Below are positions 12,098-30,118 of a stretch of DNA of 64,000 bases, one piece after another. A program made the position numbers and the translations under genes. Below the pieces are notes generated by a model. It worked only from the letters and a program-made list of their open reading frames with translations, did not search any database and was not told the DNA's origin. Numbering within the stretch: position 1 is the stretch's first letter; each line of letters begins with the position of its first letter. The DNA is from a virus, in IMG/VR virus record IMGVR_UViG_3300041411_000074, positions 1 to 64,000 of that record. The stretch is one strand, 5' to 3'.

Positions 12098-12104
12098 TGT
12101 ATCA

Positions 12105-12132: not shown

Positions 12133-12271
12133 CCTTTTGTTTGACCCACAGCCCATCCGCTTTAATTCAGTAAAAGAAGTATCTCACATCTTGTATCCCA
12201 ATTGCAAGCTTTCTTGTAAAATAGTTATACCGTTCGTCGGGAATGATACTGAAAAATATATTAATTAAACC

Positions 12272-12300
12272 TTGCTTTTCTCTTGTAATTATGCCATACT
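12272..12300 (+). promoter_or_regulatory. Sigma70-like promoter, divergent
   Basis: TTGCTT-17-CATACT with an AT-rich upstream element, ahead of the HTH gene. Confidence 0.5.
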
Positions 12301-12333
12301 TCTTTTATCAAATTACCCAGCAGAGAAGCTAAA

Positions 12334-12603
12334 ATGAAAACTGAAGAATCTACAATCCTTGATGTAAAGTCTAAGCTTGCTGCACTGATCATGCAGTTTA
12401 TGCAAGAAAAAGAATTGAATCAATATCAGACAGCCACGAAGGTAGGTACAACACAACCAAGGATCAGCGACTTGACAAGGGGTAAGATTAGTCGATTCTC
12501 TATCGAAAGCCTCCTCCTGATTGCATTGAAGCTTGGTGTCGATATTGAGCAAGAATTTGACCCTGAGTATGGCTTGAATATTCGTCTGGGTGCCGCTCAG
12601 TAG
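12334..12603 (+). CDS. XRE-family (HigA-like) helix-turn-helix protein
   Basis: LNQYQTATKVGTTQPRISDLTRGKISRFSIESLL. Confidence 0.85.
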   Translation: MKTEESTILDVKSKLAALIMQFMQEKELNQYQTATKVGTTQPRISDLTRGKISRFSIESLLLIALKLGVDIEQEFDPEYGLNIRLGAAQ

Positions 12604-12844
12604 TCGTAGCACCATGTCCCCAACAGTGCTATCCTTTGTACAACAAATAGGAGAAGCCCAAATGCCCATCATCCACTCACACACCTACCGTCTCCTGAAA
12701 CAAATCCTTGAACATGCAGATAAGGTTGTGATAGTGTCGGTAACACAAGAGGATGAGAAGCAAATGACATACACGTATGTGAAACGTAAACAAACTGAGA
12801 AGGGAGAGAGGAGATGAAATCTTTACACCCATCTGACAAGGGCA

Positions 12845-13153
12845 ATGCACCGTGGAGACGTGAGTGCTGGTACTCTAGTCCTGATAGCCTATCCTTTAAA
12901 CGTAAAAAGAAATCTAAAAGTAAGATTAAGGGGATTTAAATTGAATAACAAATTTGTAAGCTTGGTGTTGGTTGATCGTTCATCTGACTCTGTAGATGAA
13001 GAGTGGGGCCGTGGTTTTAAGGGTATCACACATTTTGAATTTGAATCAGCACAAGACGCTAGACAGTTCTTCATTGAAGAGAATATAAAGTACAAACAAG
13101 GTTTTGTTGTAGCAACACGATTCGTTCTGATTCCGTACATGGGGAGGAAATAA
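12845..13153 (+). CDS. Hypothetical protein
   Basis: ORF within the co-oriented plus-strand gene run. Confidence 0.5.
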   Translation: MHRGDVSAGTLVLIAYPLNVKRNLKVRLRGFKLNNKFVSLVLVDRSSDSVDEEWGRGFKGITHFEFESAQDARQFFIEENIKYKQGFVVATRFVLIPYMGRK

Positions 13154-13254
13154 TATGTTCTTTATTGGATTGATTTGTGGTATTGTATTGACATCGGTGA
13201 TCGGATTACTTCTAGTGGGTTATCAATTTAGTACAATGTTTCGGAGGAATTGAA

Positions 13255-13530
13255 ATGAATTGGCACACAAGAGGTTTTCTGACGAAGTTCGCTGCTCTTC
13301 TGGAAGAATACAACGCTAGCTTAGAGATTGAGGGAGACGCATACGGAGGAATTCAGGACATTACATTGGAAGTGAGGAATCCTCAGACTTTTGATCAATT
13401 CTACGATAGTTGGATTATTGAGCACCCTGAAGAGAAATATCCGTGGAATAGTCGTAAATATTCTTATGCTGATTGGGTTGATCTAGGTAAGAATGTTGAT
13501 TGTCATAAGATTAAGGGGCTTTTGAAATGA
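13255..13530 (+). CDS. Hypothetical protein
   Basis: SD GGAGG. Confidence 0.65.
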   Translation: MNWHTRGFLTKFAALLEEYNASLEIEGDAYGGIQDITLEVRNPQTFDQFYDSWIIEHPEEKYPWNSRKYSYADWVDLGKNVDCHKIKGLLK

Positions 13531-13754
13531 TCTATAAGGATATGATGCGAAGAGAAGACTTTGAAAAAGTGGTTGCAGGGTTCAGGATACTCAACCATGA
13601 ATGACTGGAGCTTTCAAGAGATTGGAGAGTTCCTATATTATTTTATCAAAAACCAAGACACAGGAAAGTATGCGCTTATCAAGCAGTATTTTGGTCAAGA
13701 TAGGTATGAGGTGCTATTACAAGATTGGACGGACTATAATGGGTTGGCCGAGGT

Positions 13755-14018
13755 ATGAGTAACCAAGCTTGCAGTAATCCATATTATGATGTGGAAAAGC
13801 AATCGGCTAACATGACCCACACATTCCGTGACCACGACATAGACGAAATCTTCGTCATCCATTCACCAAACAACACCCTCCTCCACATAAGCTACCTTGG
13901 CCCAACAGAGGAGACATTTTACACTAGGGCTGACATATTGGCGATGTTGGATATTATTGATGGGAAGGTAGAGGGAGTTGTGGTTGTAAAAGCCCAACCA
14001 CAGGAGATTCGGAAATGA
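13755..14018 (+). CDS. Hypothetical protein
   Basis: Translationally coupled (ATGA overlaps) at both ends. Confidence 0.6.
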   Translation: MSNQACSNPYYDVEKQSANMTHTFRDHDIDEIFVIHSPNNTLLHISYLGPTEETFYTRADILAMLDIIDGKVEGVVVVKAQPQEIRK

Positions 14019-14335
14019 CAACAGTAGTCAACAAATACAAAGTAAATATGTCTGATCCTGATATCATGTATGTGGGTCGTGGAAGTGTGTGGGGTAATCC
14101 ATATACAAGTCTTTCAACCCCAACCAAAGCAGAAATACAAGTAGCTACACGAGAAGAATCTATAGAGAGATATAAACAATACCTTTGGAATCAAATTCTT
14201 AAAGGTGTAATCACCAAAGAGATGCTTATTGAGCTTGATGGTAAGCGACTAGCTTGTTACTGTGCGCCTAAATCATGTCATGGTGATGTGCTGGTAGCGG
14301 CTATTGAGTGGGCTAAAGTAGAGATAAATAAATGA
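14015..14335 (+). CDS. DUF4326-family protein
   Basis: YVGRGSVWGNPY...REESIERYK...L.GKRLACYCAPKSCHGDVL. Confidence 0.85.
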   Translation: MTTVVNKYKVNMSDPDIMYVGRGSVWGNPYTSLSTPTKAEIQVATREESIERYKQYLWNQILKGVITKEMLIELDGKRLACYCAPKSCHGDVLVAAIEWAKVEINK

Positions 14336-14637
14336 CCTCCATTCTCTTGTGGTTTGTATGTGCTACATGCAGCTTTTATCTGTTCAAAAACTACATCTCA
14401 TCCAACCTGCGACAGGTGGGTATCCTAGACGCTAGCATCGCTCAAGCTATGAGAAATGCCGCTAAGAAAGACGCTTCGATTGAAGAAATCTACAATGCTA
14501 CGGACAATGTAATCAACGCAACATTTTGGACAGTGATTTTAGTGATTCATCTAGCTATTTGGCCTATTTGTTTGGTACAGTTGGTGATGTGGCAGACAAT
14601 AGATAAACAAGACTTTTCGGATTTTAGGGGTGAATGA
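14332..14637 (+). CDS. Membrane hypothetical protein
   Basis: Two hydrophobic segments; coupled to neighbours. Confidence 0.6.
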   Translation: MTSILLWFVCATCSFYLFKNYISSNLRQVGILDASIAQAMRNAAKKDASIEEIYNATDNVINATFWTVILVIHLAIWPICLVQLVMWQTIDKQDFSDFRGE

Positions 14638-15052
14638 TATGAATAAGTGGACACAAGATCTTCCAAAGACATCAGGTTACTACTGGTTCTCAATGGAATA
14701 TGAAGATCATCCACTATGCCTATACTTTGATGTTTATAGTGATTATGTGGAGACGTATGGATATTTTTATAATGATCCTTTGACGTGTGATACTTCTAAG
14801 GGTTATTATTTCTCAGAGTATCCAGTTGAGCCTCTTGGTTGGGAGGTTTGAATATGAAAGTATGTTGCTCAAACGGTAAACCTTATGACACCCTGACAGA
14901 CTTTGAACGGTTAGGTGGGTGCTCGACCGATCATTGTCTTGGACCAATAGAAGTTGAAGACTTTGATTTATTGCTAACTGGTCTTGGTACATTCAACACA
15001 AACGATTGTATTAGTTATGAAGACATGCGACATTTATTTAAAGTGAAGGAGA

Positions 15053-15457
15053 ATGAAGTTGACAACTAAAGCTCAGTATGAAATGGTAATCACAGATGTA
15101 GACAGCACCCTGACAAGTCTGCATACCCTTGAAGCATCAATTGACCTAACAGATCTGATACTGGACGGACAGATTACAGTGGCAGAGAATGCATTACTGG
15201 CTATTATCAGTTCAGCTCAAGAAAAGCTTGATCTTATCGAACAGGAGGAAGTAATGGATAATTTCCTTGCTGAATTGAAAGTTGTGTTTGATAAATACAC
15301 AGCGAAGATAGAGTTAGGGAGTACTGAGACAGGGTACGGGTTGAATTACGGAGAGGGTGAGACAGCAGTTGGTATTAAGCTGACAGCGACTTTTGAAGGG
15401 ACAACAGCGACTAAAGAGATTAATAAGTCTGTTATTGTTAGTGGAGATCTGGTGTAA
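15053..15457 (+). CDS. Hypothetical protein
   Basis: SD AAGGAG; 134 aa, acidic. Confidence 0.65.
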   Translation: MKLTTKAQYEMVITDVDSTLTSLHTLEASIDLTDLILDGQITVAENALLAIISSAQEKLDLIEQEEVMDNFLAELKVVFDKYTAKIELGSTETGYGLNYGEGETAVGIKLTATFEGTTATKEINKSVIVSGDLV

Positions 15458-15648
15458 TGGAAAAGGTTAAGGAAGTCGCTTGTGTAGAAATATCTATGAC
15501 TTGTAATAAATGTACTCATGGCGAAATGATCCCCACAGGATATAGTTATATGACAAGTCCAACCCAGTACCCACACGAGTGTAATATTTGTGAAAACAGG
15601 GAGGTATATCTCAAAAATTATCCTTGTATTGAATATCGGAAGTGTTGA
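15457..15648 (+). CDS. Small zinc-ribbon protein
   Basis: CNKC...M...PTQYPHECNIC. Confidence 0.6.
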   Translation: MEKVKEVACVEISMTCNKCTHGEMIPTGYSYMTSPTQYPHECNICENREVYLKNYPCIEYRKC

Positions 15649-16314
15649 AATGAAATCACAAGAGATTGACAAGCTCAAACAGTTGGACAGCACGGGCTGC
15701 AACGGCACTATCCAAGCTTGTTTAATGGACCCTAATATCAACCAAGCACATTATGCAGATGTTTTGTATTATTTACTGCACAAAACTCTTGACGAACGTG
15801 CGTATTATGAGAAGATGTATCAGAAGTTCTTTAATGTGATTACATCGGCCGGATTGATGAGTAATGAATTGCTTGAATTGGAGGAAAAGGTATGAAAGAC
15901 AGAGATTTTCTAAAATGGATTCATGAGCGGCTTGAACATGTGCATCATGAAAGTCCTCTAATGGATTATATGCATAAACTTCGTGCAGTGATAGCCACAA
16001 GTGATCCTGAGAAAGAAACATTGAATATGGGGATGAGTAATAGTTTGGCTGAGTTGGATAGGGAGGATGTAGAATGACAATCTCAGACGAAGATAAGAAA
16101 GCAATCTACACAGCCTATATAGCTTGGACACATCAAGTGGCAAATGATTTGGATGATAAGACTTGGTATACAGCTGAAGAGTTGGTTTATAGAGTCTTGT
16201 CCCTTGTGGAAGATCAGCTTAAAATAAAGCTTGCATAATAGATTGAAGTGTGGGAAGCTAGAGATGTTGGGAAAGTAAAGGTGTGGAAATTTAATTAATA
16301 GAAGGAAATACTAA

Positions 16315-17121
16315 ATGGCGGGTAAAAGTCGGGCATATCTAACTGTAGTCGATGACCAAGAAGTATTGGTCCCGAGGAAGAAAACACGGTCCACCCGAAA
16401 TGGTGGTGTTAAGCCTGAGATTAAGGAGAAGTTTCTGGAGGAACGTAATAATCCACCACCAGTTGTGGCTAAGACCGCAAAACAGAAAGAATACTTCCGT
16501 CTTTTGGAAGATCCTGAAGTAAAAGCAATCGTATGCTTGGGTTTGCATGGCACGGGTAAGACTTTTTGTGCTGCTGTTGTGGCTGCTGATAAGTTTCGTA
16601 AGAATGAGATTAAACAAATTATTGTAGCTCGTGCATATGTCCAAACTGGTAAAACATCAGGCTACAAACCCGGTAGTTCTTTGCAGAAATTGTACCCCTA
16701 TGTGCGTAACGTACTAGATACTATTAAATCGCGTATTGGTGCTGGAGCATATGAAATTGCACTGAAAGACGGAGAATCTGGTGAAATTCAGGTGCAAGAG
16801 GTTGAAAGCATCAGGGGCCGATCTTTTGACCTGCCTTCTTACCTCATAATCGACGAAAGCCAACAGACTACAAAGGAAGAAATGCAAAGTATTGTTACGC
16901 GAGTATCAGATAACTGCAAATTGGTCCTCTGCGGTGATATTTTGCAGAAGGATATTCAAGGTGAGTCTGGTCTTGAGTGGTTTATGTCTTTCTCAAAACG
17001 TCACAACTTGAAAGGTGTTGCAGTAATTGACTTTAACTCCCCAGATGAAATTGTTCGTGGTGGGTTGGTTAAAGATATTGCGATTGGGATGATGAAAGAT
17101 CGTGAACAGGAGAGTAAATAA
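16315..17121 (+). CDS. phoH: PhoH-family ATPase
   Basis: GLHGTGKT, IIVAR, GYKPG, IRGRSF, IIDESQ, LCGD..Q.D, IVRGGLV. Confidence 0.93.
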   Translation: MAGKSRAYLTVVDDQEVLVPRKKTRSTRNGGVKPEIKEKFLEERNNPPPVVAKTAKQKEYFRLLEDPEVKAIVCLGLHGTGKTFCAAVVAADKFRKNEIKQIIVARAYVQTGKTSGYKPGSSLQKLYPYVRNVLDTIKSRIGAGAYEIALKDGESGEIQVQEVESIRGRSFDLPSYLIIDESQQTTKEEMQSIVTRVSDNCKLVLCGDILQKDIQGESGLEWFMSFSKRHNLKGVAVIDFNSPDEIVRGGLVKDIAIGMMKDREQESK

Positions 17122-17894
17122 TGAGTGAATTGATTCCATTTATGCAACCCAAGCGTGTGATGACTCGCTCGTTTAATAATCATGAATATAAAATCCGTAT
17201 TGCACGTCCTATTACGGAAATTGATGACTTTGAAGAGGAAATCATGGCTCTGGAAGAGGCGACCGAGCACGACGTTGTGTTTGTCCAACTTTCAAGTCCG
17301 GGAGGCAGCCTTGAAACATGTGATTTTATTTGCCGCCGAATGAATGAATGTGCTGCACCTATCATTGTTGAAATCGGCATGACATGTGCTTCAGCGGCTA
17401 GCGCTATGATGTTGCAAGCAACGGACTGGGTTATTGATGATAGTTCTACAGCTATGATTCACGCTTGTTCATACAGTCCGGGCTGGGGCAAGGAGTTTGA
17501 CGTACGTATGTCAGTAAGTTACACCGAGCGTCTTAATAGGGAGTGGATTGAACGCACTTATTCTGGATTCCTCACAGAAACTGAGCTTCAGCAGGTATTG
17601 GACGGAAAAGACCTTTATTTCTTTGCAGATGATCTTCGTGAACGTCTTCCGAAGTATAAAGAATATCGAGATGCAGTGAATGCAGCTAAACCTTGTCAAT
17701 GCGGTGATCCATTGTGTGGTCAGCCTACAAATCCAACTGGTGAAGATGAAGGATTTGAAGACCTTGAAGATTTCGACCTAGAAGCTCTTATCCAAGAAAA
17801 AGTTGACGCTGCTTTAGTTGCATATGACAAAAAGGTAAAGTCTGCTGCTCGTAAGGCTGCAAAACCAGTAAAATCTGTAGAAAAGACTGAATAA
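17121..17894 (+). CDS. ClpP-like serine protease
   Basis: LSSPGGS, CASAAS (catalytic Ser), AMIH (His); acidic/basic C-terminal tail. Confidence 0.8.
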   Translation: MSELIPFMQPKRVMTRSFNNHEYKIRIARPITEIDDFEEEIMALEEATEHDVVFVQLSSPGGSLETCDFICRRMNECAAPIIVEIGMTCASAASAMMLQATDWVIDDSSTAMIHACSYSPGWGKEFDVRMSVSYTERLNREWIERTYSGFLTETELQQVLDGKDLYFFADDLRERLPKYKEYRDAVNAAKPCQCGDPLCGQPTNPTGEDEGFEDLEDFDLEALIQEKVDAALVAYDKKVKSAARKAAKPVKSVEKTE

Positions 17895-17963
17895 AGAGCT
17901 AGACAAACCAGTGGAGTGCATGTATTATTGGCTCCACTAACTTAAAACAAAGGAGAGAAATAA

Positions 17964-18272
17964 ATGCCAACAATTGCTGAACGAAATGATATTGCATTTG
18001 CGAGTATGCGGGAACGATTTCAAGAACGGCTTGACACAGAAACTGTACAGATGACACTAGGAGAGCTTGTTGAGTACACAGAGGCTTGTGATTCAATGTG
18101 TGATTTGTGTCACATTGAAAGTTACGCGCAATTAACTTGTTTCCTTATGCAAAATCTTGGTTATGATTATCCAGATGCACCAGTTGTTCTTCGATATAAA
18201 ACTTTGAACACTTCTGAGGGTATTCAATCTGCTTTGTCCGACTGGGACAACCGTTATGAGATGGGGAAATAA
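17964..18272 (+). CDS. Hypothetical protein
   Basis: Strong SD AAGGAGAG. Confidence 0.65.
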   Translation: MPTIAERNDIAFASMRERFQERLDTETVQMTLGELVEYTEACDSMCDLCHIESYAQLTCFLMQNLGYDYPDAPVVLRYKTLNTSEGIQSALSDWDNRYEMGK

Positions 18273-19092
18273 GATGATTAGAGCACAGGAAATTGAGGAA
18301 CTCATTGCAGAACAACAAGCTGACCTTGCTGCACAGGAAAAGTCAGAGAATTCTGAGGAGGAAGAATGAAGGAATTAGATTATGATGAACGATATGAAGA
18401 TTACTTAGCCATCGTTGAACACTGTTTCGATGTTGAGCCAATGTGGTGTTATGATCTAGACTTGGAATACATGCAAGGAGAAATGATTTGAATTTACCAC
18501 CAAATACAAACCCAGAGCTTGCACAAAAGTTCAAAGATTTTAAAGATAGTATTGAGTTTAGTAGTAAGACATGTAAATCTAAGATCTACGGACCAACAGG
18601 CTTCCTAGTTTGGGAGGAGGCAGAAGAAGATTACCAAAAACGTATGAATGAACTATTCTACGAAGTTAAATAAGGAGAATAAAATGCCACTATACATGTT
18701 GGTTATAGTTGACTTCGGACACCGTGAGAATGTTGGCTTGTTTGACACACAGGCTAAAGCAATGGCTTTGCAGACAAGTTTGGAACTAGAACTGTTTGAC
18801 TCTGGTACTCTTTGTGGTATTAGTTTTTACACTGAGGAGCACTTTGTTAAATGAATTACGAACAAGATAAAATTGAAGACCTTGAATCATCGATGGAATT
18901 GTGGTTGATGGGTAATGCGGAAAATGCTGTAGAAACATTTGGAGAGGATATTGTAGCTGCAATTAATGAAGTTCTAGATCATGAGTGATTATGATATTTT
19001 CTTAGACCAACAGCTTGAAGATTACTATGAAGGTTTCGAAGAGGAAGCTGAAGAGCCTGAATGGGACGGACCATATCCAGAGGATGAGTATT

Positions 19093-19380
19093 ATGAGTAC
19101 GACTGAGAAGAAAGTTAAAGAGTTGAAAATCACCACAGTCGATTATAAAACTTATACTGACTACGAGTTTATACCTCCGGGATTGTGGATGATGCAAAAT
19201 GCAATTGGAGATTATATTTTTATCAGCACAAGCAGCAGGCAAGAGGCACAGGACTGGGTAGACTCTAATTATCCGCCGAAAGGGAAATATAAAGTAACTG
19301 CCACCAAGATGATTACTACAAAACCTAAAAGTGAGAGTGGAAATTTATCTTGCACTGGAACAGCCACTAGAAAGAAATAG
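19093..19380 (+). CDS. Hypothetical protein
   Basis: Start moved to MSTTEKK; basic protein. Confidence 0.55.
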   Translation: MSTTEKKVKELKITTVDYKTYTDYEFIPPGLWMMQNAIGDYIFISTSSRQEAQDWVDSNYPPKGKYKVTATKMITTKPKSESGNLSCTGTATRKK

Positions 19381-19389
19381 GAGAGCAAC

Positions 19390-19602
19390 ATGGAATACAC
19401 AATCACATACAATGACAAAGAACAGAAGTTTGAAATGAACGGTGTACTGGAGATGTGGGTAGGTAACCATCTCTACACAATTGCAAAAGAAAATAACGTA
19501 ACGACTATTGCAGACTCCGAAAGTCACCACTTGGCAATTCTTGGCGCACACGGGATTAAGGTCAATCTTCTTGAGGAAGACGGTTCACGGATGGAGTGGT
19601 GA
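19390..19602 (+). CDS. Hypothetical protein
   Basis: SD AGGAG. Confidence 0.6.
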   Translation: MEYTITYNDKEQKFEMNGVLEMWVGNHLYTIAKENNVTTIADSESHHLAILGAHGIKVNLLEEDGSRMEW

Positions 19603-20096
19603 TGAGCAAAGAATATTCACTCTACATGGACATTGCTCTACGAGCTGCACAAGATAGTCATGCAGTCAGGAAGAAGGTTGGGTCAGTAATTTTAACTAAA
19701 AGTCGTGGTTTGTATGTAGGTTACAATGGGACACTTCCCGGAATGAGCAACACTTGCGAGGAGAAGATCTACAATAATGGTGCAGGTGGTTGGATGGATG
19801 AGGTTTCTTTTAAAGAAGTCTATCCTTACGAAGATGAGAATGGACATTACAAACTGAAAACTTTGGAAGGTGTAGTCCACTCGGAAATCAACTCACTGTG
19901 CAAGATGTTGAAAGAGGGTGTTAGTGCTGAAGGAGCTACAATCTTTGTAACATTGTCTCCATGTGCAACTTGCAGTTCAATTATCGCTTCCAGTGGGATT
20001 AAAAAGGTTGTATACTACGAGGAATACAGAGATACCAAGGGTATTGAGATGTTGAGAGATTTTGGTGTGCAGGTAGAGCAGTATGAACCGACTTAA
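19602..20096 (+). CDS. dCMP deaminase
   Basis: KVG.V...GYNG, HSEIN and SPCATC zinc-binding motifs. Confidence 0.9.
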   Translation: MSKEYSLYMDIALRAAQDSHAVRKKVGSVILTKSRGLYVGYNGTLPGMSNTCEEKIYNNGAGGWMDEVSFKEVYPYEDENGHYKLKTLEGVVHSEINSLCKMLKEGVSAEGATIFVTLSPCATCSSIIASSGIKKVVYYEEYRDTKGIEMLRDFGVQVEQYEPT

Positions 20097-20421
20097 ACCT
20101 GAGAACGGTTCATTTGATAACGTCGTGAGGGAATGTTTTAAGAAGAATAAAAACTCTTGTATTAGCTTCTTTTTAAGCTCATCATACTGTTACTACATCC
20201 TCTACCAGTCACTGATGACAGATGGAGCCTTTGACAAAATGTGCAAGTGGATGCTTGAGAATTACGATAGCTTGGAACATGAACACAAGGATCTTGTAAC
20301 AAAGGAAATGCTATCTGCGGGAAGTGGATATAATATCCCATATGATGGGTATCCACTCAGGGTGCAGAATTCAGCAAGTTATTTTATTGAAGCTTTATAT
20401 AAATCTAAAGGAGAAAATTAA
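20083..20421 (+). CDS. Stand-alone NAD-ligase subdomain Ia-like protein
   Basis: SYCYYILYQSLMTDGAFDKMCKWM matches the YY......sD..yD pattern of LigA subdomain Ia. Confidence 0.6.
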   Translation: MNRLKPENGSFDNVVRECFKKNKNSCISFFLSSSYCYYILYQSLMTDGAFDKMCKWMLENYDSLEHEHKDLVTKEMLSAGSGYNIPYDGYPLRVQNSASYFIEALYKSKGEN

Positions 20422-20846
20422 TGCACACATCAGAAAGCCTGTGGGATTCAGAAGAGATTATTGACACTAAAAATCTCCAGTTTTTCAGCCTATGTCAAGT
20501 TATGGCTGCACTACATTACGAATATGTAGAATATCGTTCTTGTGCTTCACGGTTTGAAAGTAAACACCACTCCAATAAAGGGCGTGAAGTGTTGTCGATT
20601 TCTTCATGTATTACACTCTATAACGGTAATAGTGCAAAGTGTGTGTTTGGTCGTCCACCAAGTAAGTTGAATATCTGGTGCTTCTCGGATTATGCGATTG
20701 CACAAGCTAAGGCTGCTCGTATTGTAAAGCAGGTTAAACTTCAATATTGCCGACAGACAAAACAGTTGCTAGTGCAAGATCATCGAGTTCAGTTCGTTCT
20801 TAGTTCTTATAAGAATCTTTTCCTTAACAATAAATATCTGGGGTGA
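20421..20846 (+). CDS. Hypothetical protein
   Basis: SD AAGGAG; coupled. Confidence 0.6.
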   Translation: MHTSESLWDSEEIIDTKNLQFFSLCQVMAALHYEYVEYRSCASRFESKHHSNKGREVLSISSCITLYNGNSAKCVFGRPPSKLNIWCFSDYAIAQAKAARIVKQVKLQYCRQTKQLLVQDHRVQFVLSSYKNLFLNNKYLG

Positions 20847-21987
20847 GTCATGGACAGAGCAATTATCTATATGTTCTCCGACTCTTCATGGATGTATGCG
20901 TGTGAGTTCAATCCAAGGTTTCATTCGGAAAAGGGTAAGTACCACGAAATCATCGTCGGTCGTGGCTGGAGTAGTCGTGAAGTTGACGAAATGATTAAAC
21001 CGTACTATGAAGAAAATGCATCAACAATCTTTGATCAATAGAAATTTATAAGGCTCTTAGGCTCTTGTCTCGGGGCTTTTCTTTTGCCATAATGAATTAC
21101 AAATTTAGAGGAGGTTTTATGAAAACTTTATTGATTGTTCTAAGTATTTGCTCAGCTTTAGTGGTAATATTCACTATAACAAACTTGACGTGGCCTACAG
21201 CAATTGCTATTAGTGTCTACGGTGTATGTCAATACTGTATCGGACTGTGTGATAATGAATAAACAGAAAGAAAAGCTAAAGAAAGACCTAGAACTAATCC
21301 ACCGCCACCTAACACGGGCAGAAGTTGTGATGGAAAAGATAGCCACAAAACTTGGCATTGACAGACACGAATACTTAGAGAAAACTCTATACGAAGTGGA
21401 AGAGTTGCTGAAAATGTTTGAAGACAACGGACCACCAAAGACCCACTAGGCCTTGTTTAGTTACTTAGTGGACATCATAAAGACTTTTAGAGAACATTTG
21501 CAATGGTAGGATTAGTTAAACAACGTCTAGCTTGGGAAGCAGAATTTGCATTAGGTGCTGAGCCGGACTTTGTGGCTTTTAAAGAGTATAAAGAAAAGAG
21601 ATTGTCTGAAGATTTCAGGCTGTCAAGTTATATGGAAAAGCATTTTGAATACGTGATTAATTTAGAACGAAGACTGAAGGAGAAAGAAGATGAGTAATAA
21701 TGATAAATGGTTCTTTGGGTTTATTACGTTGTGGATTGTTTTGACAACAGGTACACCAGATGTAGTTGATGCAGTGACTGTTAGATTGATGGGTAGTCAG
21801 TGTACTTATGATGCTTATAAAGGAGTTAAACCGTGAGTAACGAGGAAAAGAAAGGCTTAATTAATGATTTCTTGGTATGGGCACAATACAACAGAAGTAC
21901 ACAGCTTCAATACATGCCAGAATGGGATACTGAATATTATGGTGTGGATCAAGAAGAATTGATTGATGAATATCTGAAGGAGGAGCT

Positions 21988-22368
21988 ATGACTAACCCGA
22001 ATTTTGCACCAATCACAGACGCTCAACGAGAACAGGCTAAACAACAACGGCTAGTTGACCAAGAGTTTGCCCGTAATAATCTTAAAGTAATTTACACCGA
22101 CCAGCCGCACTGGGTAACACTAGCTTCTAAATATAATTGTAAACTGCCAATGTGGTGGAAGCCCTCAAGTGATGTGAAATACCTACGCCGGGTGGCAAAG
22201 AAAGCTAATTTTGATTTGAATGTCTTTGTAGAAAGTACAGGCTGTTCTAACATCAAAGAATATGCTGAATTAAACTCAAATTGGAGTGTGCTTGGGCTAG
22301 TTGGGACACTACTTGAGTTCATTGATGAGCAAAAGACGTCAGAATCCAAGCAATATACAATAAGTTAA
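21988..22368 (+). CDS. Hypothetical protein
   Basis: SD AGGAGG. Confidence 0.65.
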   Translation: MTNPNFAPITDAQREQAKQQRLVDQEFARNNLKVIYTDQPHWVTLASKYNCKLPMWWKPSSDVKYLRRVAKKANFDLNVFVESTGCSNIKEYAELNSNWSVLGLVGTLLEFIDEQKTSESKQYTIS

Positions 22369-22478
22369 GGGAGTTTTAGGTGTAAGAAACAACGTTCTCT
22401 ACCCCAAAGCTGTGAGACTAAGGTTGTAAAGACACGAAGTTTCTGCTACGATATATTCCCAATGAAAGGAGAAATAAA

Positions 22479-22790
22479 TTGAAACTAACAAACGAAGACA
22501 TCAATAGCTCCATTGATAATCTGAAAGCAGCTCAAAGTGAGTTGTCTGCTGTTATTAGTTATGTACAAAATAAATGTAATCACACAAACATAGCTGAATG
22601 TGATTACCAACCAAGTGAATTCTTCAACGCTCTTGCACCAATGCGTGTATGTTTAGATTGTGGTCTATCTGAAGAAGGCTGGGGTTGTGGTTTTCAAGTG
22701 TTGCGTGAAAAGGTTGCAGGGTTGACACCAAGGAAAATTAGTAGGGATGACTTGTACGCAATTCGCTGTGGTAAGCATATTACTCAATAG
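22479..22790 (+). CDS. Hypothetical protein (C.H...CxxCG)
   Basis: SD AAGGAG with TTG start. Confidence 0.6.
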   Translation: MKLTNEDINSSIDNLKAAQSELSAVISYVQNKCNHTNIAECDYQPSEFFNALAPMRVCLDCGLSEEGWGCGFQVLREKVAGLTPRKISRDDLYAIRCGKHITQ

Positions 22791-23146
22791 GAGAATTAAA
22801 ATGTTAATAATCTTATATCTCGCAATATCTTTGGTGATGTTCTACCACGAAGTATTAGATTCATACAGATGTAAAGTTAAAATTGATTTTGTAAGGAGTG
22901 TATCCTTCTCTCTTTTGTGGCTGATCAGTATCCCCTTCTCCACTTACCTGATGTGGAAGGAACTGAAATGACCAAACAATATTCCTACGACAGAGAAGTG
23001 ATTAAAGACTTCATCCAGTTCTTGTCAGATGAGCATAAGTGTGCGGTAGTTTGCTTCCCAGATGAATTTGCAGCTAATAGTTATGTCAACTATCGTTTTG
23101 TTAACGTTTCAGAAATATTAGAAGAGTTTATTGAGGGGAGAAAACA

Positions 23147-23983
23147 GTGAGCATTCAAATGCAAAACCAAACAACAATGTTGGGGAATCAGTCCATATAC
23201 GTCTCAATTAAGCCGGGGAAGGTTGGGACTGTCCCACTTTTGATAATGAACGGTATAGGAGCGAATACTGGTCTGCTGACTCCGTTTGTTGAAGCTATGC
23301 ACGAATCAAATCCTGATATCGAGGTTATTACTTTTGATGTACCGGGGTGTGGAGGTTCTTCTACCCCTTCGCTGCCATATAGGTTTAGCGGCTTGGCTAA
23401 AATAGTTTCACAAATGTTAGACTATTTGAACTATGCACAAGTTGATGTACTTGGACTTAGTTGGGGTGGATTTTTGGCAACCCAGTTTGCTTATGATTAT
23501 CCTCAGCGTTGTAAGAAACTAATTCTATGTGCTACAGCAACAGGAGTTACCAGTATTCCACCCAGTATGAAAGTACTTTCTCTAATGGCTTCACCTAGAC
23601 GTTACTCTGATTCAGCTTACATGGTTGAGATTGCACCTTTGATCTACGGTGGAAAATTCCGCTCTGATCCTGAACTAGCAATTAAGTACGCACAGAAGAT
23701 GGAAGCTAACAGATCTGAGAATAAAGCTAACGCAACTGGCTATAAGTTTCAACAGCTAGCAATTTGTTGGTGGAGTAGTTTGTGGATGTTTCCTTACATT
23801 AAACAGTCTACACTTTTGATTGGTGGTAGTGATGATCCAATCATACCGCTGGTGAATATGAAGATTATGAAAGGGATGATCCCTAATTCTAAACTTCATG
23901 TGGTGGATGATGGACATCTTTTCCTTCTTTGTTCAACTGACGTGGTAACGCCTATTATTACTAAATTCTTGGAAGTGTCATGA
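23147..23983 (+). CDS. phaZ: Poly(3-hydroxyalkanoate) depolymerase, intracellular mcl-PHA type (alpha/beta hydrolase)
   Basis: Colinear with Pseudomonas PhaZ as I recall it: PLLIMNGIGAN, FDVPG.GGSSTP..PYRF.GLAK, GLSWGG (Ser), YPQRCKKL, MASPRRY, IAPLIYGG, DDPIIPLVNM (Asp), DDGHLFL (His). SD GAGGGGAG. Confidence 0.9.
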   Translation: MSIQMQNQTTMLGNQSIYVSIKPGKVGTVPLLIMNGIGANTGLLTPFVEAMHESNPDIEVITFDVPGCGGSSTPSLPYRFSGLAKIVSQMLDYLNYAQVDVLGLSWGGFLATQFAYDYPQRCKKLILCATATGVTSIPPSMKVLSLMASPRRYSDSAYMVEIAPLIYGGKFRSDPELAIKYAQKMEANRSENKANATGYKFQQLAICWWSSLWMFPYIKQSTLLIGGSDDPIIPLVNMKIMKGMIPNSKLHVVDDGHLFLLCSTDVVTPIITKFLEVS

Positions 23984-24381
23984 TAATTGAATATGCTAAA
24001 ACACTCTCACCTCCGATGTGCGGGCAATACCCTGAAAAGATATGGGTATTCGGTGATAACATGAAAGCATTTGGTAAGGGTGGACAAGCCATAATCCGTG
24101 ACGAGCCTAATGCTTTCGGCATCCCAACTAAACGATATCCTTCTTGGGATGATTGGGCATTCTTTAGTGACCAACCAGATGAAATTGAAGCTGTAAAGGA
24201 ATCGTTACGTGAGTTGTGGAAGCTTTCACAAGACAAAGTGATTGTATTCCCTGAAGATGGGATTGGGACAGGAAGGGCTAAGATGAAAGAGAAAAGTCCT
24301 ATTGCTTATAAGCTGATGTGTGATATATTGCGGGAACATTTTGGAATACTCAACGGTGTTACTGATGGAGCGAAATCATGA
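23980..24381 (+). CDS. Conserved phage protein (VFGDN...GGQA..R..PN..GIPTK family)
   Basis: Recurrent phage motif; coupled to phaZ. Confidence 0.7.
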   Translation: MIIEYAKTLSPPMCGQYPEKIWVFGDNMKAFGKGGQAIIRDEPNAFGIPTKRYPSWDDWAFFSDQPDEIEAVKESLRELWKLSQDKVIVFPEDGIGTGRAKMKEKSPIAYKLMCDILREHFGILNGVTDGAKS

Positions 24382-24671
24382 CAGCAAAACAACCAACACC
24401 AATGCCTGAAGGAATCACTAGACCAAAGGCTCCTGCTGCACCACCTAGAAAGCCTGCGTTGGCTAGTCCAAATAACCTAACACTAGAGCAGGCATTTGAT
24501 ATCCTGTTTCAGAAATATAAAGATGCACTTGAGGAGTTGAGTGAGAAATGACTATAGAACGCTGCTCATGTGGAGCTAGGGAGAAGAATAAGTGTAATAA
24601 AGAATCCACACCTATTGATGGTGTAAGGTATGGTAAAATTTGCGTGAAGGAATTAAAAGAGGAGAGTAAGA

Positions 24672-25145
24672 ATGTTAGTTGAAATGGATAAAGGAATGCT
24701 GTCTGCACTAATCAAGGGTTGTGACCCTGCCTATGAGATTATGGATCACCCACTGATTAAGTCTAAAGGCTATTACACTGGTGGACACTGCGACAGATGG
24801 AACTGGAATAGTTCTTTTGGAGATTGTACAGAGGAACAGTTGTGGGAGACGTATCAGTTACTGAATAATCCAGTTCCATACAAGAGGCGTCCCAGCATGG
24901 CTGGACCATGTTCTGCTTCTGAACTCTATAAACGCCTTATGGAACTGGAAGGTGTAGAATATGTTTTGATTGAAGATCATTATAACCTGTCAGTTACTAT
25001 TACAGTGGTTGGCGGCAAGGATCAAGAGATTGCCGATACGCTTGCAAGCTCCCTCGCTATGATGACTAAGACACTAGGCGAATATCAGGTTGTTGCAAGT
25101 GGTAAAATGAATTGGACATTTCGAATTAATCGGGAGATAAAATAA
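24672..25145 (+). CDS. Hypothetical protein with C-terminal baseplate-J-like segment
   Basis: LMELEGVEYVLI...ITVVGGKDQEIADTL...F.INR. Confidence 0.6.
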   Translation: MLVEMDKGMLSALIKGCDPAYEIMDHPLIKSKGYYTGGHCDRWNWNSSFGDCTEEQLWETYQLLNNPVPYKRRPSMAGPCSASELYKRLMELEGVEYVLIEDHYNLSVTITVVGGKDQEIADTLASSLAMMTKTLGEYQVVASGKMNWTFRINREIK

Positions 25146-25411
25146 TGGAACACGTTAAACAGTTAATTGAATCCATTCCGGGTGTTGAGTTCGTGCATGT
25201 CACAACTAATCGTACGTGGGATGCGGACAAGAAAACAGGACTGATTCCACAAAGCTTTAAAATATATGTGTTAGGTGGAAAGAAGAAAGAAATTGCACAA
25301 ATGATATGGAACAACAAGCCTATTGGTGTATTGTCTCAGGGTAATACTAAAGTGAAAGTTAAAGATTCGCTTGGATTCAAGCACATGATTAGTTTTGAGA
25401 GGCTTCTGTGA
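25145..25411 (+). CDS. Stand-alone baseplate-J-like domain
   Basis: IPGV..V.V..N.T..D..GL.P.SF..YV.GG...EIAQ.IW..KP.G...GN..V.V.DS.G....I.F.R pattern of myophage baseplate J. Confidence 0.7.
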   Translation: MEHVKQLIESIPGVEFVHVTTNRTWDADKKTGLIPQSFKIYVLGGKKKEIAQMIWNNKPIGVLSQGNTKVKVKDSLGFKHMISFERLL

Positions 25412-25519
25412 CTAAATTCGAACAAGCTAGGCAAAGAGCACGCGAGTTAGATAAACTCCATCCTGACTTGATTCACATGGTTGGGATTAGGTATCTGATT
25501 ACTAGAGTGAGGAAATATA

Positions 25520-25768
25520 GTGAACCAAACAATTGAAGAAAGATTTCAGTCAATAGAAGACCAACTTAAAGCAATTAGGAAAGAGCTGGAGGAGAGTTTG
25601 GCGAGGTATTATACTCCGTATAAGAACAAACACTATCCATTTAACGCGGATCTAGATCCTAGGACTGCTACAGGATATGGCCTAAGATATCTTGCACAAG
25701 AAGCTGGTGTAGACTTTGATCCGCTAGATACTGATGAACAAGTGAGAAATAAATTGGGGAACAAATAA
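25520..25768 (+). CDS. Small protein with baseplate-wedge-like motif
   Basis: LDPRTATGYGLRYLAQEAGV...DTDEQVR. Confidence 0.55.
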   Translation: MNQTIEERFQSIEDQLKAIRKELEESLARYYTPYKNKHYPFNADLDPRTATGYGLRYLAQEAGVDFDPLDTDEQVRNKLGNK

Positions 25769-26105
25769 TGAAAGCGTATCAAGTAGTATTGGTTGATGGT
25801 GATGGGGCAAGTTTTGAAGAGTTCGTAACTCCTAAAGTGTTTATTGACAAGACAAAGGCTGAAGCTTACAAACAGTTCTTTATTGATGAGGATGCTGGTT
25901 GGTGGAAAGTTTATGTTAAGGAAGTGAAGTTGGTAGAATGAAACCAATAATCCTTAAAACACCAGAAGGACTATATGTCTGTGAAATCCCTATTGAGAAT
26001 GAACCAGAAGACGGAGCATCTGATAGAGAGTGGTGGATATGGGCAGCGACTGGAGTAGGGGCAAGTACGGTGGTGTAACCACATCCCTGTAGAGGCTTAT
26101 GATAG

Positions 26106-26576
26106 TTGGGTGAAGGATTGGGAGGAGATGGTGTGAGCAGCTTTAAAAGAGAAGAACGTTACATTGTACTAAAGCTAAGTGATCTTACAGATGATGAGTA
26201 TAATCACATTGAAGATTACCTTGAAAAATGTATGATTGAACGCCGAGAGTGTGTTGTGGTAGAATCTGACTGGCCTATTTACGACGAGGTCTGGAAAATG
26301 ATTGAGAAGATTGAAAATGAAGAGAGAAAAGTTTTGATGGGCGAGGTATCAGTGGAAGACCAAGCAGTATCATCATTTGCAGAGTTTGATATCATGAATC
26401 AATGTGATCCTGAAATTTTCACTGCTAAAGATTGGGAAGAATCTGTTCAAAAAGGTTGGTATAATCAGGGTGACGGACGAGCATTGTGGGGGACAAGTAC
26501 ACACTACAACTACGATCATTCTGGATTTAGTAGTCAGCCCGCTAACGCAACACATGTCCATTGGTTTCCTAAATAA
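26106..26576 (+). CDS. Hypothetical protein
   Basis: FKREERYIVLKLSD...CVVVESDWP.Y..VW pattern common in phages; true start probably the GTG behind GGAGGAG. Confidence 0.65.
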   Translation: MGEGLGGDGVSSFKREERYIVLKLSDLTDDEYNHIEDYLEKCMIERRECVVVESDWPIYDEVWKMIEKIENEERKVLMGEVSVEDQAVSSFAEFDIMNQCDPEIFTAKDWEESVQKGWYNQGDGRALWGTSTHYNYDHSGFSSQPANATHVHWFPK

Positions 26577-26591
26577 AACTTGGTGTTTAAA

Positions 26592-26801
26592 ATGATTAAA
26601 CCAGAAGACCTAGAAATCAGCACATACCCACCCTATAAAACTGGTGGGCAACATGTAGGACTTACTCATAGTGGTGTGTTGATTGTACATATACCCACAG
26701 GACTTGGTGTTGTGTCTATTACTGAGAGAAGTCAATATAGAAATAAAGAGAGGGCTTTGACAATGTTGGAAATATTGGTTGAATTGGAGGGTACAGAATG
26801 A
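26592..26801 (+). CDS. Minimal class-I release-factor (RF-1/GGQ) domain protein
   Basis: EDLEISTY....GGQHV....SGV.I.HIPTG..V....RSQYRNKERAL..L. Confidence 0.85.
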   Translation: MIKPEDLEISTYPPYKTGGQHVGLTHSGVLIVHIPTGLGVVSITERSQYRNKERALTMLEILVELEGTE

Positions 26802-26930
26802 ATAGGTTTGAGGAAGCTAAAGCAAGAGCTAGAGAGTTAGATAAATTACAGCCTGAATACTCACATGCTGTCGGTATAAACTACGATATTGTCAGGTGGA
26901 GAAACCACAAAGATGAAAAAGAGGAGACTT

Positions 26931-27464
26931 ATGGCACGACTAGCAAAGAAGACTGACAATGAGATTGTAGCTGAGTGGCTTATTGAGCATCGTTGGAAAG
27001 AAACACTAAACTCTGATACTAAGCAAAAGATGCCAGCCTTCGTGGAGGAGGCTGTGTGGGCTGCTGTCTATATTGTAGCTGGTACACACAACGGTAAAGT
27101 TAATATCAGTCCAAAGCTTGTATTCAAGTGCCTCATGCTTGATCCAATTACTTCTGAATCTGTTAAGACAAGAGAGGTGGGATATGCCATGGGAGATAGT
27201 ACAGCAAGGCGACTGGCACAAACAGCTAGGTTTGCACTCAAAGGGATTCAAGGTCGAATAGAGGCATACCAACAACAAATACCAGAAGAGGTTTTGAGGG
27301 TTAAAGAAATGGAACGTAAGTTTGTGATTGCTTATTACACAGGGTTTGATAGTCCACTTTATTCTGAACCACTGCCTCCTATACCTAGTGAGATTATGCA
27401 GCTTAGATCAGAGGGTAAGTATCTAGAATATGGTGAAGCTGTAAGGGAGTTCCGAAGTAAGTAA
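26931..27464 (+). CDS. Hypothetical protein
   Basis: Start MARLAKK behind SD GAGGAG. Confidence 0.65.
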   Translation: MARLAKKTDNEIVAEWLIEHRWKETLNSDTKQKMPAFVEEAVWAAVYIVAGTHNGKVNISPKLVFKCLMLDPITSESVKTREVGYAMGDSTARRLAQTARFALKGIQGRIEAYQQQIPEEVLRVKEMERKFVIAYYTGFDSPLYSEPLPPIPSEIMQLRSEGKYLEYGEAVREFRSK

Positions 27465-27500
27465 TTACGCTCGGAGTATAGTAGAGATAATTTAAGTTGA

Positions 27501-28499
27501 GTGTGTATGGCTAACTGGGAAGATTTATTAGGTGGTGAAGAAATACAGTTTGACGGATTTGAAGGTACAAGTTATGGAGATTTAACTGTCCTTGGGTGGA
27601 ATGGTAAATATGGCAATGATAAGAAATATATTGTATCTTGTTCTGTATGTAGACAAGATCCTGAACTGCACGGATCGGGGTTATTCGCTATGAGTAAGGG
27701 ACACCTCAATAGAGGTTGTATCCCTTGTGGTTGTGCAGAAAAGCCTAACTGGACAGAGGACCAATATAAGGTAAGAGTAAGTAGAGCTTGCATAGAAAGG
27801 GGTTTAATCTTCAGAGGTTGGCACGGGGAATATACTACTGCAAACAAAACCAAAGTTAGAGCAGAGTGTCCAGATCACGGCGATTTCTGGTCTATGACAA
27901 TTAGTTTCTTTCTTATAAAAGATGGTTACAAAGGTTGTGCTGGATGCTTTGCTTTAAGGATGGGAGATTATAAAAGAAAAGATGACTCTGTAATGATTAA
28001 AATGTTTATGGACACTGGATGTTATGCTGATGGTACAGTATTTACCAGAAGTGAAAGAGTTGATAAACACGGACATAAGAAATACTGGTACATGGATTGT
28101 CCTGACTGTGGTGAATCAGGTGAAGGACATTTAGTGGGTTTGTATAAGGGTGCTAGGTCTTGTGCTTGTAGTGGTAATAGACAACAAGAAACCTATATCA
28201 ATCTTCTAATGGATAAAGAAGATGTAATTGCTATTAAGTTTGGCATTGCAAATCTATCAACTGAAAGGATTAAACGACAGAATCAGCTATCAATTTATGA
28301 TGTTGTAAATTATGGTGTCTGGACTTATCCAACAGTTAAAGACTGTAGAGATGCTGAAAGGTATTGTCTGAATAACCTAACTACAAAGGTAATCACTAAA
28401 GAGGAAATGCCCGATGGGTATACTGAGACTACCTTCCCCTCAAATTTAGAACCTGTGATTCACATCTTTGAGGAATATGGTGGTGTGAGAAATATCTAA
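27501..28499 (+). CDS. Cys-rich putative homing endonuclease (GIY-YIG-like C-terminus)
   Basis: Several CxxC/CPxHG zinc motifs; C-terminal YINLL....IKFGIAN....R.K.Q...E. Confidence 0.6.
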   Translation: MCMANWEDLLGGEEIQFDGFEGTSYGDLTVLGWNGKYGNDKKYIVSCSVCRQDPELHGSGLFAMSKGHLNRGCIPCGCAEKPNWTEDQYKVRVSRACIERGLIFRGWHGEYTTANKTKVRAECPDHGDFWSMTISFFLIKDGYKGCAGCFALRMGDYKRKDDSVMIKMFMDTGCYADGTVFTRSERVDKHGHKKYWYMDCPDCGESGEGHLVGLYKGARSCACSGNRQQETYINLLMDKEDVIAIKFGIANLSTERIKRQNQLSIYDVVNYGVWTYPTVKDCRDAERYCLNNLTTKVITKEEMPDGYTETTFPSNLEPVIHIFEEYGGVRNI

Positions 28500-28514
28500 T
28501 CCCCTGTTAAAATT

Positions 28515-28543
28515 AGAAGCCCTCCTTGTGAGGGTTTTCTTTT
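28515..28543 (+). terminator. Rho-independent terminator ending the plus-strand block
   Basis: AGAAGCCCTC-CTTGT-GAGGGTTTTCT followed by T-run. Confidence 0.75.
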
Positions 28544-29167
28544 GCGTGTCTAGAAAATATGTGAAAGGTCTATAAGCATTGAAAACACTGGCGCGGTATC
28601 AGATTAGCTTAACGCCTTAAGGATTCACCCAATACGAATCATTCTTAAATAATAAAATATCACAACAATAATCGTGCCAACTAACTCGCCAGTCATCTGA
28701 TCAATACCTCTAAAGATATTACCCTTGACATAAACTCTGACAGGTGGATGTAACAAGATAGCTTGCTTGGGGTGCATATATTTTAACGTTATGTTCAATG
28801 GAGCAACTACTCTAAACACCCTAGCACTCATACTGACCAACGTATGTCAACCATAATAATCCACTCTGCACAACTAGCACACTTCACTAGCTTAAGTCAA
28901 TGTATTGTGCAGTTTGTGTGAAGGATTGGCTGAGAGATGGTGGTTAATGTATGTGGAATGGAATCGTTACAGGGGAAAGTTGGAGGGATTCGACTACAGG
29001 CTTAACATCAGAGATGTCTCGCCCATCCCTTGACAGAGTATTATTAGCCACTTATCACTAACTGAGAGTACATGTGTACACTAGAATCGATAAGGCTTAG
29101 AAGGGATTTTACAGGCTAGAGATTTGAAGGGGTATTGTAAGAGGGTGTGCACTGACTATAAACAACT

Positions 29168-29188
29168 ACGTCCCACATTGTGGGACGT
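29168..29188 (-). terminator. Perfect inverted repeat, likely terminator of the minus-strand block
   Basis: ACGTCCCACA-T-TGTGGGACGT just after the stop of ORF 29215. Confidence 0.55.
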
Positions 29189-29214
29189 TATAATAACCTG
29201 CTAGAATGTTTTAC

Positions 29215-29469
29215 TTAACCTAACAACTCAGCTAGAAGGTCATCGTCAAGAATGTCGTCAATTGTCTGATAAGGAGTGTCATCTAACATCAGCGTAGCTG
29301 TCTTTTTATCAATACCAACCTTTGCATAGCTCTTATCACCAGCCTTAATAGCTTCAAGGTGACGTTTAAGGTTCTTAATCTCTGAGGCTGTTGACATAGG
29401 AGAAGCTTGGGTGTTAAAGAACTTACTACCAGTGCAGTCTGTAATGTAGATGCTATGCCAACCATTCAT
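29215..29469 (-). CDS. Hypothetical early protein
   Basis: Start MNGWHS downstream of the promoter at 29507-29535. Confidence 0.55.
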   Translation of the reverse strand: MNGWHSIYITDCTGSKFFNTQASPMSTASEIKNLKRHLEAIKAGDKSYAKVGIDKKTATLMLDDTPYQTIDDILDDDLLAELLG

Positions 29470-29506
29470 GATCTTCTTCCTAAATGGTGTTTCGTTCTGA
29501 TGTCTC

Positions 29507-29535
29507 ATTGTAAGAGAATTCATCTACCCTGTAAA
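29507..29535 (-). promoter_or_regulatory. Sigma70-like early promoter
   Basis: AATAAAGC-TTTACA-17-TACAAT. Confidence 0.65.
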
Positions 29536-30118
29536 GCTTTATTTAAAAGAATTACTCAATTAGTAAACCATACCTTTTCAAAAGTAGTCGCCTAGCAGCC
29601 TGCACAGCTTCATTGTCAGGGTGCCCTTCTGCTGTTCTAATCAACTTCTCTTTTCGAGTTAGTAAGCTATCAGGATGTATTACACTTCCATTTTCTATGG
29701 CTTCTCTGTATAAGTCCTCTGCAATAGCTACTTTAGCTTGTAGCTCTATTGTAGTATTGTTCCACCATCTCTGATATGTCTTTGTTTGTGGTGCTGATCT
29801 AAGCCCTGCATGTATATGACTCAAAACATCATATTTTGTAGGGTAGCCGTTAGCTATTGACCATTGAGTAAGATTCTGAACAGGGATTGACATATTTCTA
29901 GAAAGCTTCTGGCTGATGTAGATAGTAGAAGTAACCATTTTTGTTACCTAGCCTGTTCCATTCTTTAACCAGCGTATCAGCTTTTACTAAGCTCAAACCA
30001 ACATATTCTCCATCCGTTTCAACAAACCAACCTCTGTCTGACATTTGACCATTGCGAAACTTTTGTTCAACAATGGCACCAGTATTCTTGCTGTATGTCC
30101 AGTAAGTGAAGATTCGCA

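Follow-up and report, generated by a model that had tools for sequence, protein, structure and literature searches.

Pseudomonas and many soil bacteria store carbon and energy mainly as polyhydroxyalkanoate (PHA). The subject here is a phaZ-like gene at positions 23147-23983, on the + strand, of a stretch of viral DNA of 64,000 nucleotides (the window), which is the first 64 kb of the 89,364-bp IMG/VR virus record IMGVR_UViG_3300041411_000074. The breakdown of medium-chain-length PHA (mcl-PHA) inside the cell is regarded, in the sections of one enzyme study that deal with it, as a trait specific to Pseudomonas that has one model enzyme (PMC12504323). PhaZKT of P. putida KT2440/KT2442, a member of TIGR02240, is encoded between phaC1 and phaC2. 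The same sections give its catalytic triad as Ser102/Asp221/His248 and describe Asn35 as essential; activity is lost when the loop 34-38 (FNGIG), the hydrophobic hinge 190-195 (YYWQLF) or the lid 133-192 is deleted (PMC12504323).

PHA depolymerases have also been named in phages. The Ralstonia phage proteins RP12-ORF269 and RP31-ORF266 are listed as 'poly(3-hydroxyalkanoate) depolymerase' in a single line, without analysis in the part of the paper where they appear (Matsui et al. 2017, PMC5468394). RP12 ORF269 resembles the product of the window's gene in being a phage-encoded full-length homologue (46.9% identity over 98% of the query) and in retaining the triad; unlike it, the RP12 protein falls outside the clade of Pseudomonas and phage sequences described below and is carried by a phiKZ-related jumbo phage whose host is Ralstonia. 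A polyhydroxybutyrate (PHB) depolymerase is named as a candidate auxiliary metabolic gene of a Gloeobacter prophage in the relevant part of a preprint (PMC13317609). The literature search, with subscription journals and supplements outside its reach, found no paper on the Pseudomonas-type phage PhaZ clade, to which RP12/RP31 are distant, and none that studies the function of a phage PHA depolymerase.

On balance, it is probable that the phaZ-like gene (phaZ) is an accessory (auxiliary metabolic) gene of a lytic tailed phage of ~89 kb and that it encodes a working intracellular mcl-PHA depolymerase of the Pseudomonas PhaZ type. Its product of 278 amino acids (aa) scores 333.6 bits (E = 9.1e-100) against the NCBIfam equivalog model TIGR02240, poly(3-hydroxyalkanoate) depolymerase, which has a cut-off of 250.6 bits. 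Residues 9-276 match profile positions 6-264 of 276, a search of the whole genome gave the same result, and Pfam Abhydrolase_1 is matched as well. True PhaZ proteins of two Pseudomonas genomes reach ~630 bits on this scale and the best paralogue 61 bits, which puts the phage protein far on the PhaZ side. Other families were considered and rejected: the next one, 3-oxoadipate enol-lactonase PcaD (TIGR02427), gave 81 bits against a cut-off of 255.85, and the intracellular short-chain-length PHA (PHB) depolymerase (NF050089) gave 50.4 bits against a cut-off of 300, over residues 51-131 only. Scores for HsaD, proline iminopeptidase and macrolide esterases lay far under their cut-offs. In the class of G001, 4 of 400 sampled genomes exceed the TIGR02240 cut-off, a figure taken as a sign of narrow distribution and nothing further.

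Direct comparison with bacterial proteins agrees with the profile result. Identity to PhaZKT is 54-56% over residues 8-276, and the phage protein, like PhaZKT, has no signal peptide on direct reading of its N-terminus. The best 80 bacterial matches listed, at 53-56% identity, comprise 79 Pseudomonas records and one 'gamma proteobacterium L18'; the scan of bacterial contigs covered one genome per species and matched at least 600 stretches, and a closer bacterial homologue may exist beyond the matches listed. In one Pseudomonas locus (L008) the PhaZ homologue lies between two 560-aa PhaC genes, in the order phaC1-phaZ-phaC2. Membership of the phage product in the family of intracellular mcl-PHA depolymerases is fully supported by these sequence comparisons.

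The active site of the family is preserved. S105 (within the G-x-S-x-G elbow GLSWGG), D230 and H257 of the phage protein align with S102, D221 and H248 of P. putida PhaZ, and residues 34-38 read MNGIG, so that Asn35 and the NGIG loop are kept as in PhaZKT. The characteristic motifs are NGIGAN at residues 35-40, GLSWGG at 103-108, DDP at 229-231 and DDGH at 254-257. An alignment of 28 homologues has 55 invariant columns, including S105, D229, D230 and H257; G36, I37 and G38 are likewise invariant and N35 nearly so. An AlphaFold2 model built on these 28 homologues, with a predicted local distance difference test score (pLDDT) of 89.5, has an alpha/beta core and a helical cap predicted at residues 141-206, which may correspond to the helical lid of PhaZKT, likewise an alpha/beta hydrolase. 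Relative to PhaZKT, three residues are inserted after the first helix. No solved structure of the PhaZ family was found; the best sequence match in the PDB is the metagenomic esterase Est1 (6eb3, E 6.6e-33). A Foldseek search of the PDB returned generic alpha/beta hydrolases only, at template modelling (TM) scores of 0.70-0.80: esterases, among them one that degrades acyl-homoserine lactones (AHLs), C-C hydrolases and a Bacillus PHB depolymerase.

Two trees place the phage protein beside that of Pseudomonas. A quick tree was built from 106 rows, after 29 of 135 had been dropped as near-duplicates (at least 93% identity); L112 (205 aa after trimming, under the 250-aa cut) was excluded, as were L137 and L139, which had no open reading frame (ORF) passing the filters. 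In this tree Pseudomonas PhaZ and all phage and metagenome rows form a starred clade (99), and RP12 together with all other representatives of 50% clusters lies outside it. The careful tree holds 52 rows: the window's protein, 29 viral, 9 Pseudomonas, P0121 and 12 outgroup rows, with 21 rows of unverified context left out; two non-IMG/VR rows (P0120 and P0090) count as viral solely from their position in the quick tree, sister to IMG/VR loci. All 30 phage rows fall in one clade (95/79, not starred), which is sister to Pseudomonas PhaZ and its cluster representative (99/96); the two together are separated from the 12 outgroup rows at 100/99. The simplest reading of these trees would be one old capture followed by spread from phage to phage. 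The first-pass annotation of this DNA had proposed a PHA depolymerase of the Pseudomonas phaC1-phaZ-phaC2 type and had named a profile hidden Markov model search and a tree as ways to check it. The proposal holds on both, since the TIGR02240 cut-off is passed with no other hydrolase family as best match and the protein groups with Pseudomonas PhaZ at 100/99; the 53-56% identity, the triad and Asn35 agree with it.

The gene is tightly embedded among its neighbours, and the features of the locus are as follows.

23147-23983, + strand: phaZ-like gene with a GTG start; encodes an alpha/beta hydrolase of 278 aa from the family of intracellular mcl-PHA depolymerases.
23459-23461 (S105), 23834-23836 (D230) and 23915-23917 (H257), + strand: catalytic codons of the phaZ-like gene, from alignment of the triad with P. 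putida PhaZ.
23133-23139, + strand: putative Shine-Dalgarno-like GAGGGGA, ~10 nt 5' of the phaZ GTG, read from the sequence.
22917-23150, + strand: ORF of 77 aa with no Pfam family; its TGA stop overlaps the phaZ GTG (GTGA, 23147-23150).
23980-24381, + strand: 133-aa DUF7831 protein (Pfam PF25176, 104.5 bits); its ATG overlaps the phaZ stop (ATGA, 23980-23983).

An overlap of 4 nt thus joins phaZ to each neighbouring ORF. In an alignment with P0007, a relative with 80% identity, the GTG falls on the ATG at which the P0007 gene starts. Homologues of the 77-aa ORF (62-85% identity) stand immediately 5' of phaZ in seven other viral loci (L003, L004, L005, L088, L090, L091 and L136), and the DUF7831 gene stands immediately 3' of it in L090 and L091 (87% identity). 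A DUF7831 gene is also present in the ~104-kb phages L135 and L138, at 53-55% identity and ~3.7 kb upstream of phaZ.

Composition and selection mark phaZ as a gene of the phage. Its GC content is 0.41, with 0.35 at third codon positions (GC3), in a genome of GC 0.408; the Pseudomonas phaZ copies have a GC3 of 0.83-0.91. Among phages the GC of phaZ follows the carrier, from 0.41 to 0.59, with GC3 from 0.35 to 0.74. The ratio of nonsynonymous to synonymous substitution rates (dN/dS) is 0.065-0.147 against six copies that are 83-91% identical (dS 0.69-0.99) and 0.084-0.142 in six further pairs, with dS of 0.4-1.0 over all pairs. The gene is under purifying selection and selectively maintained. 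A host contaminant or misassembly is rejected on the GC3 of 0.35 against 0.83-0.91, the overlapping neighbours and the synteny in 10 related phage loci. Judged by the phage hallmark genes, the complete CheckV assessment and the dN/dS of 0.07-0.15, phaZ is a host-type metabolic gene in a bona fide phage genome. This bears out the earlier view of the gene as ameliorated rather than a host contaminant, to which the phage-like GC and GC3, the dN/dS and the synteny in related phages all speak; the ORF with its four motifs, its Shine-Dalgarno-like stretch and its coupling to both neighbours were likewise found where the first-pass annotation had placed them.

The carrier genome is rated 100% complete by CheckV. 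Searches with PHROGs gave named functions to 8 of 10 large proteins tested, and the genome encodes portal, large terminase, primase-helicase, family A DNA polymerase, exonuclease and endonucleases. The + strand block that contains phaZ also holds genes for PhoH, a Clp-like protease and deoxycytidine monophosphate (dCMP) deaminase. The nearest deposited phage is Pseudomonas phage vB_PsaM_M1, a seawater phage of 89,387 bp with the host Pseudomonas sp. ZM01, on which the literature search found no paper. Its DNA polymerase is 68% and its large terminase subunit (TerL) 44% identical to those of the present genome, and its GC is 0.406 against 0.408. From this nearest cultured phage and the equal GC, we infer Pseudomonas as the host of the phage. 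A megablast search with positions 22000-25000 against deposited phage records gave no match. The absence of phaC from the window, pointed out earlier, extends to the rest of the 89,364-bp genome: a tblastn search with both PhaC proteins of a Pseudomonas locus reached a best E of 2.2, and Pfam PhaC_N had no match. A phasin and an AMP-binding acyl-CoA synthetase were searched for in the phage genome and not found. In these respects the locus is unlike that of PhaZKT, being phage-encoded and without phaC, phaD or phasin genes.

The DNA occurs in three public runs from three studies, all labelled rhizosphere metagenome; one of them may be its source. In run X3, from another study, pieces of contigs match the gene without any difference over 23111-23640, and a diverged copy extends over most of its length. 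Run X2 covers the flanks and, of phaZ, the 5' part only; no inference is drawn from it. In run X1 a single contig of depth 11 joins 23104 to 24368, the letters between being unknown, which may reflect a variant present alongside that has other content where phaZ lies; no inference is drawn from this run either.

Homologues of phaZ are spread over several phage backbones that are unrelated to one another. A large protein collection yielded 1660 homologues at E <= 0.001; the best 120 of these have 54-100% identity, and 10 of the 120 lie on contigs of 82-92 kb. In IMG/VR, 57 loci carry the gene, and no PhaC was found in their flanks of up to 6 kb. That phaZ does not stand between phaC1 and phaC2 in phages is a feature of its context and not of the enzyme. 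Ten of the loci (L003-L007, L088-L091 and L136; GC 0.39-0.40) have the window's gene order around phaZ; the remainder, at GC 0.41-0.60, have almost nothing else in common with this genome. For instance, the 283.6-kb contig L092 is a relative of Noxifer, a jumbo phage of Pseudomonas, with nucleotide identity of 73% over 86% of 8 kb; in L092, phaZ at 5938-6821 exactly replaces Noxifer gp081, a gene for a 150-aa hypothetical protein (L221:3451-3890), with conserved flanks. By comparison of the two genomes, this swap is a clean single-gene cassette exchange. Another example is L109, which is related to Bordetella phage PHB04 and to Pseudomonas phages Touem01, Dolphis and Jeremy, and in which phaZ adjoins baseplate genes. 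For L096 no clear relative was found. Flanking proteins of seven phaZ-bearing lineages match phage families in 8 of 10 cases tested.

Within the group of the window's phage, inheritance of phaZ is discordant with that of other genes. Among 26 near-complete genomes, phaZ is present in 10, exactly the carriers already known. Four genomes whose PhaZ is 83-91% identical to that of the window have TerL proteins only 35-42% identical, and the DNA polymerase is similar in only two phaZ carriers (83% and 89%). By the discordant identities of PhaZ, TerL and polymerase, phaZ moves together with a variable early region, and the phages of this group, 80-107 kb in size, are strongly mosaic. This mosaicism of modules is seen when the whole genome (G000) is compared with G403-G428; one genome with a TerL 85% identical to that of the window lacks phaZ and has no DNA polymerase of detectable similarity.

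Taken together, the data suggest that the phage taps the PHA store of its host during infection. The gene lies in one + strand block with those for PhoH, the ClpP-like protease and dCMP deaminase, so that its expression would probably coincide with theirs and precede that of the late genes. The enzyme would bind host PHA granules and hydrolyse the polyester to (R)-3-hydroxyalkanoic acids. The phage brings no genes for the steps that follow, and the acyl-CoA synthetase and beta-oxidation of the host would turn the 3-hydroxy acids into acetyl-CoA and reducing power. Phage replication would in this way be fed in cells loaded with carbon and limited by nitrogen or phosphorus, such as Pseudomonas in the rhizosphere. 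The alteration of its lid hinge may also let the phage copy evade the control that the host has over the PHA cycle. Comparable are other starvation-linked auxiliary metabolic genes, of which PhoH (16315-17121) of the same phage is an example: like them, phaZ is host-derived, under selection and located in a non-structural block of a lytic phage; unlike them, it targets a storage polymer.

A wider proposal is more tentative, and we put it forward as a possibility that we hold to be rather doubtful. According to it, a phage-only PhaZ lineage was captured once from the Pseudomonas line and then passed as a single-gene cassette between unrelated phages of Pseudomonas type (~90-kb myoviruses, Noxifer-like jumbo phages, PHB04/Touem01-like phages and others). 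With its altered lid hinge, the product would be a deregulated depolymerase that overrides host PHA control, and the polyester store of rhizosphere Pseudomonas would be a resource contested by phages that helps to set burst size in starved cells.

A number of observations weigh against a PhaZ-type depolymerase that feeds the phage, and several of them concern the enzyme itself. Identity to Pseudomonas PhaZ is lowest in the lid (0.49, compared with 0.56 in the core). The hinge reads YKFQQL and keeps only the Tyr and Gln of YYWQLF, ~7 residues are inserted directly before it, and the C-terminal tail of the Pseudomonas enzymes is missing from most phage copies. The phage proteins thus differ from PhaZKT as a phage-only sister clade, which also has substitutions of its own beside the nucleophile elbow or in the lid and hinge (P. 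putida positions): A106 to F, G136 to P and V182 to M in 29 of 30 copies each, K137 to S in 28 of 30, and loss of W192 in 30 of 30. Such clade-specific changes of lid and hinge may bear on the substrate range of the phage enzyme. Together with the hinge insertion and the lost C-terminal tail, they speak for an esterase or lipase shifted off PHA and retargeted to some other host ester, such as 3-(3-hydroxyalkanoyloxy)alkanoates, membrane lipids or AHLs, as do the general and AHL-degrading esterases among the structural neighbours and the label 'esterase/lipase', the only one that PHROGs and RefSeq give to relatives. We nevertheless regard such a shift as unlikely: the TIGR02240 score is well over the equivalog cut-off and far over those of other families, full-length identity to bona fide PhaZ is 53-56%, the lid is present and conserved among phage copies (identity 0.60), and the identified carrier backbones all point to Pseudomonas-type phages, whose hosts make mcl-PHA. 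The same activity could also serve a physical purpose, with dissolution of the granules freeing cytoplasmic space, releasing granule-bound proteins or easing assembly or lysis in cells packed with granules. This would suit a depolymerase carried alone, without acyl-CoA synthetase, phasin or PhaC, and its presence in Noxifer-type jumbo phages and, in other lineages, beside virion or baseplate genes. The sequence offers nothing that separates granule clearance from fuelling, however, the absence of downstream enzymes says little since the host has them, and PhoH, encoded nearby, is more in keeping with starvation; we consider a purely physical benefit to be quite improbable.

The remaining points against a store-tapping depolymerase concern its distribution, origin and expression. 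Among 50,697 deposited phage records, full-length homologues occur in Ralstonia phages RP12 and RP31 only, so that there is no cultured system for the Pseudomonas-type phage clade, and vB_PsaM_M1 has no phaZ homologue. The gene is absent from all 16 genomes found via terminase alone, one of which has a TerL 85% identical to that of the window and three of which have TerL proteins at 68-70%. The terminase pattern scans (3 loci from one sequence, 34 from a 5-row alignment) missed most phaZ-bearing genomes and were not exhaustive, and the count of 0 of 16 covers the genomes found. By this comparison of genomes phaZ is dispensable, an accessory gene in the phage's own group. Such dispensability would also fit a neutral passenger or an assembly artefact, that is, a host fragment without a role. 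That explanation is scarcely credible in view of the dN/dS of 0.07-0.15 at dS of 0.4-1.0, the GC3 far from that of the Pseudomonas copies, the 4-nt overlaps with both neighbours, the same position in 10 related phage loci and the identical pieces in a run of another study. As for origin, fast evolution in phages could push a clade truly born within Pseudomonas to the base of the tree, and the sister position could be partly an artefact of rate. A scan of 12000-30000 gave 36 promoter-like sites where 49.3 were expected from shuffles and 11 terminator-like sites where 10.2 were expected; with neither enriched, the scan delimits no transcription unit for phaZ. None of the public runs listed for this stretch is RNA, which is counted here on the negative side, yet is evidence neither for nor against expression.

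If phaZ does act as an intracellular mcl-PHA depolymerase, a conserved phage-only branch of PhaZ in several types of phage would mean that viruses tap storage granules. A storage-polymer route would then join viral auxiliary metabolism, with a bearing on carbon turnover in the rhizosphere. Engineering of the enzyme for bioplastic recycling is under way, and the phage copies would provide natural variants of its lid as well.

Several other regions of these genomes are of separate interest. In the window, the PhoH-like protein (148.6 bits; gene 16315-17121) adjoins a weak Clp-protease-like protein (24.3 bits), the two spanning 16315-17894, and vB_PsaM_M1 has PhoH-like and Clp-protease-like proteins too, at 31-35% identity. 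At 20083-20846, a 112-aa protein that consists of the NAD-binding Ia domain of DNA ligase alone (Pfam Nlig-Ia, 29.4 bits) precedes a DUF7390 protein, which is 27% identical to a hypothetical ORF of vB_PsaM_M1 that adjoins an annotated DNA ligase of 296 aa, and this ligase region is the matching region after the dCMP deaminase. Among the related phages, the DNA polymerase of two genomes (G418:C1:65895-68747 and G405:C1:21499-24492) matches in two pieces ~740-930 bp apart within one open frame of 971-1010 aa, which looks like an in-frame insertion, possibly an intein. In two others (G406:C1:8559-10426 and G407:C1:80620-82486), TerL residues 47-522 are accompanied by a separate piece for residues 3-51 ~300 bp away, a pattern suggestive of an intervening element close to the gene's 5' end.

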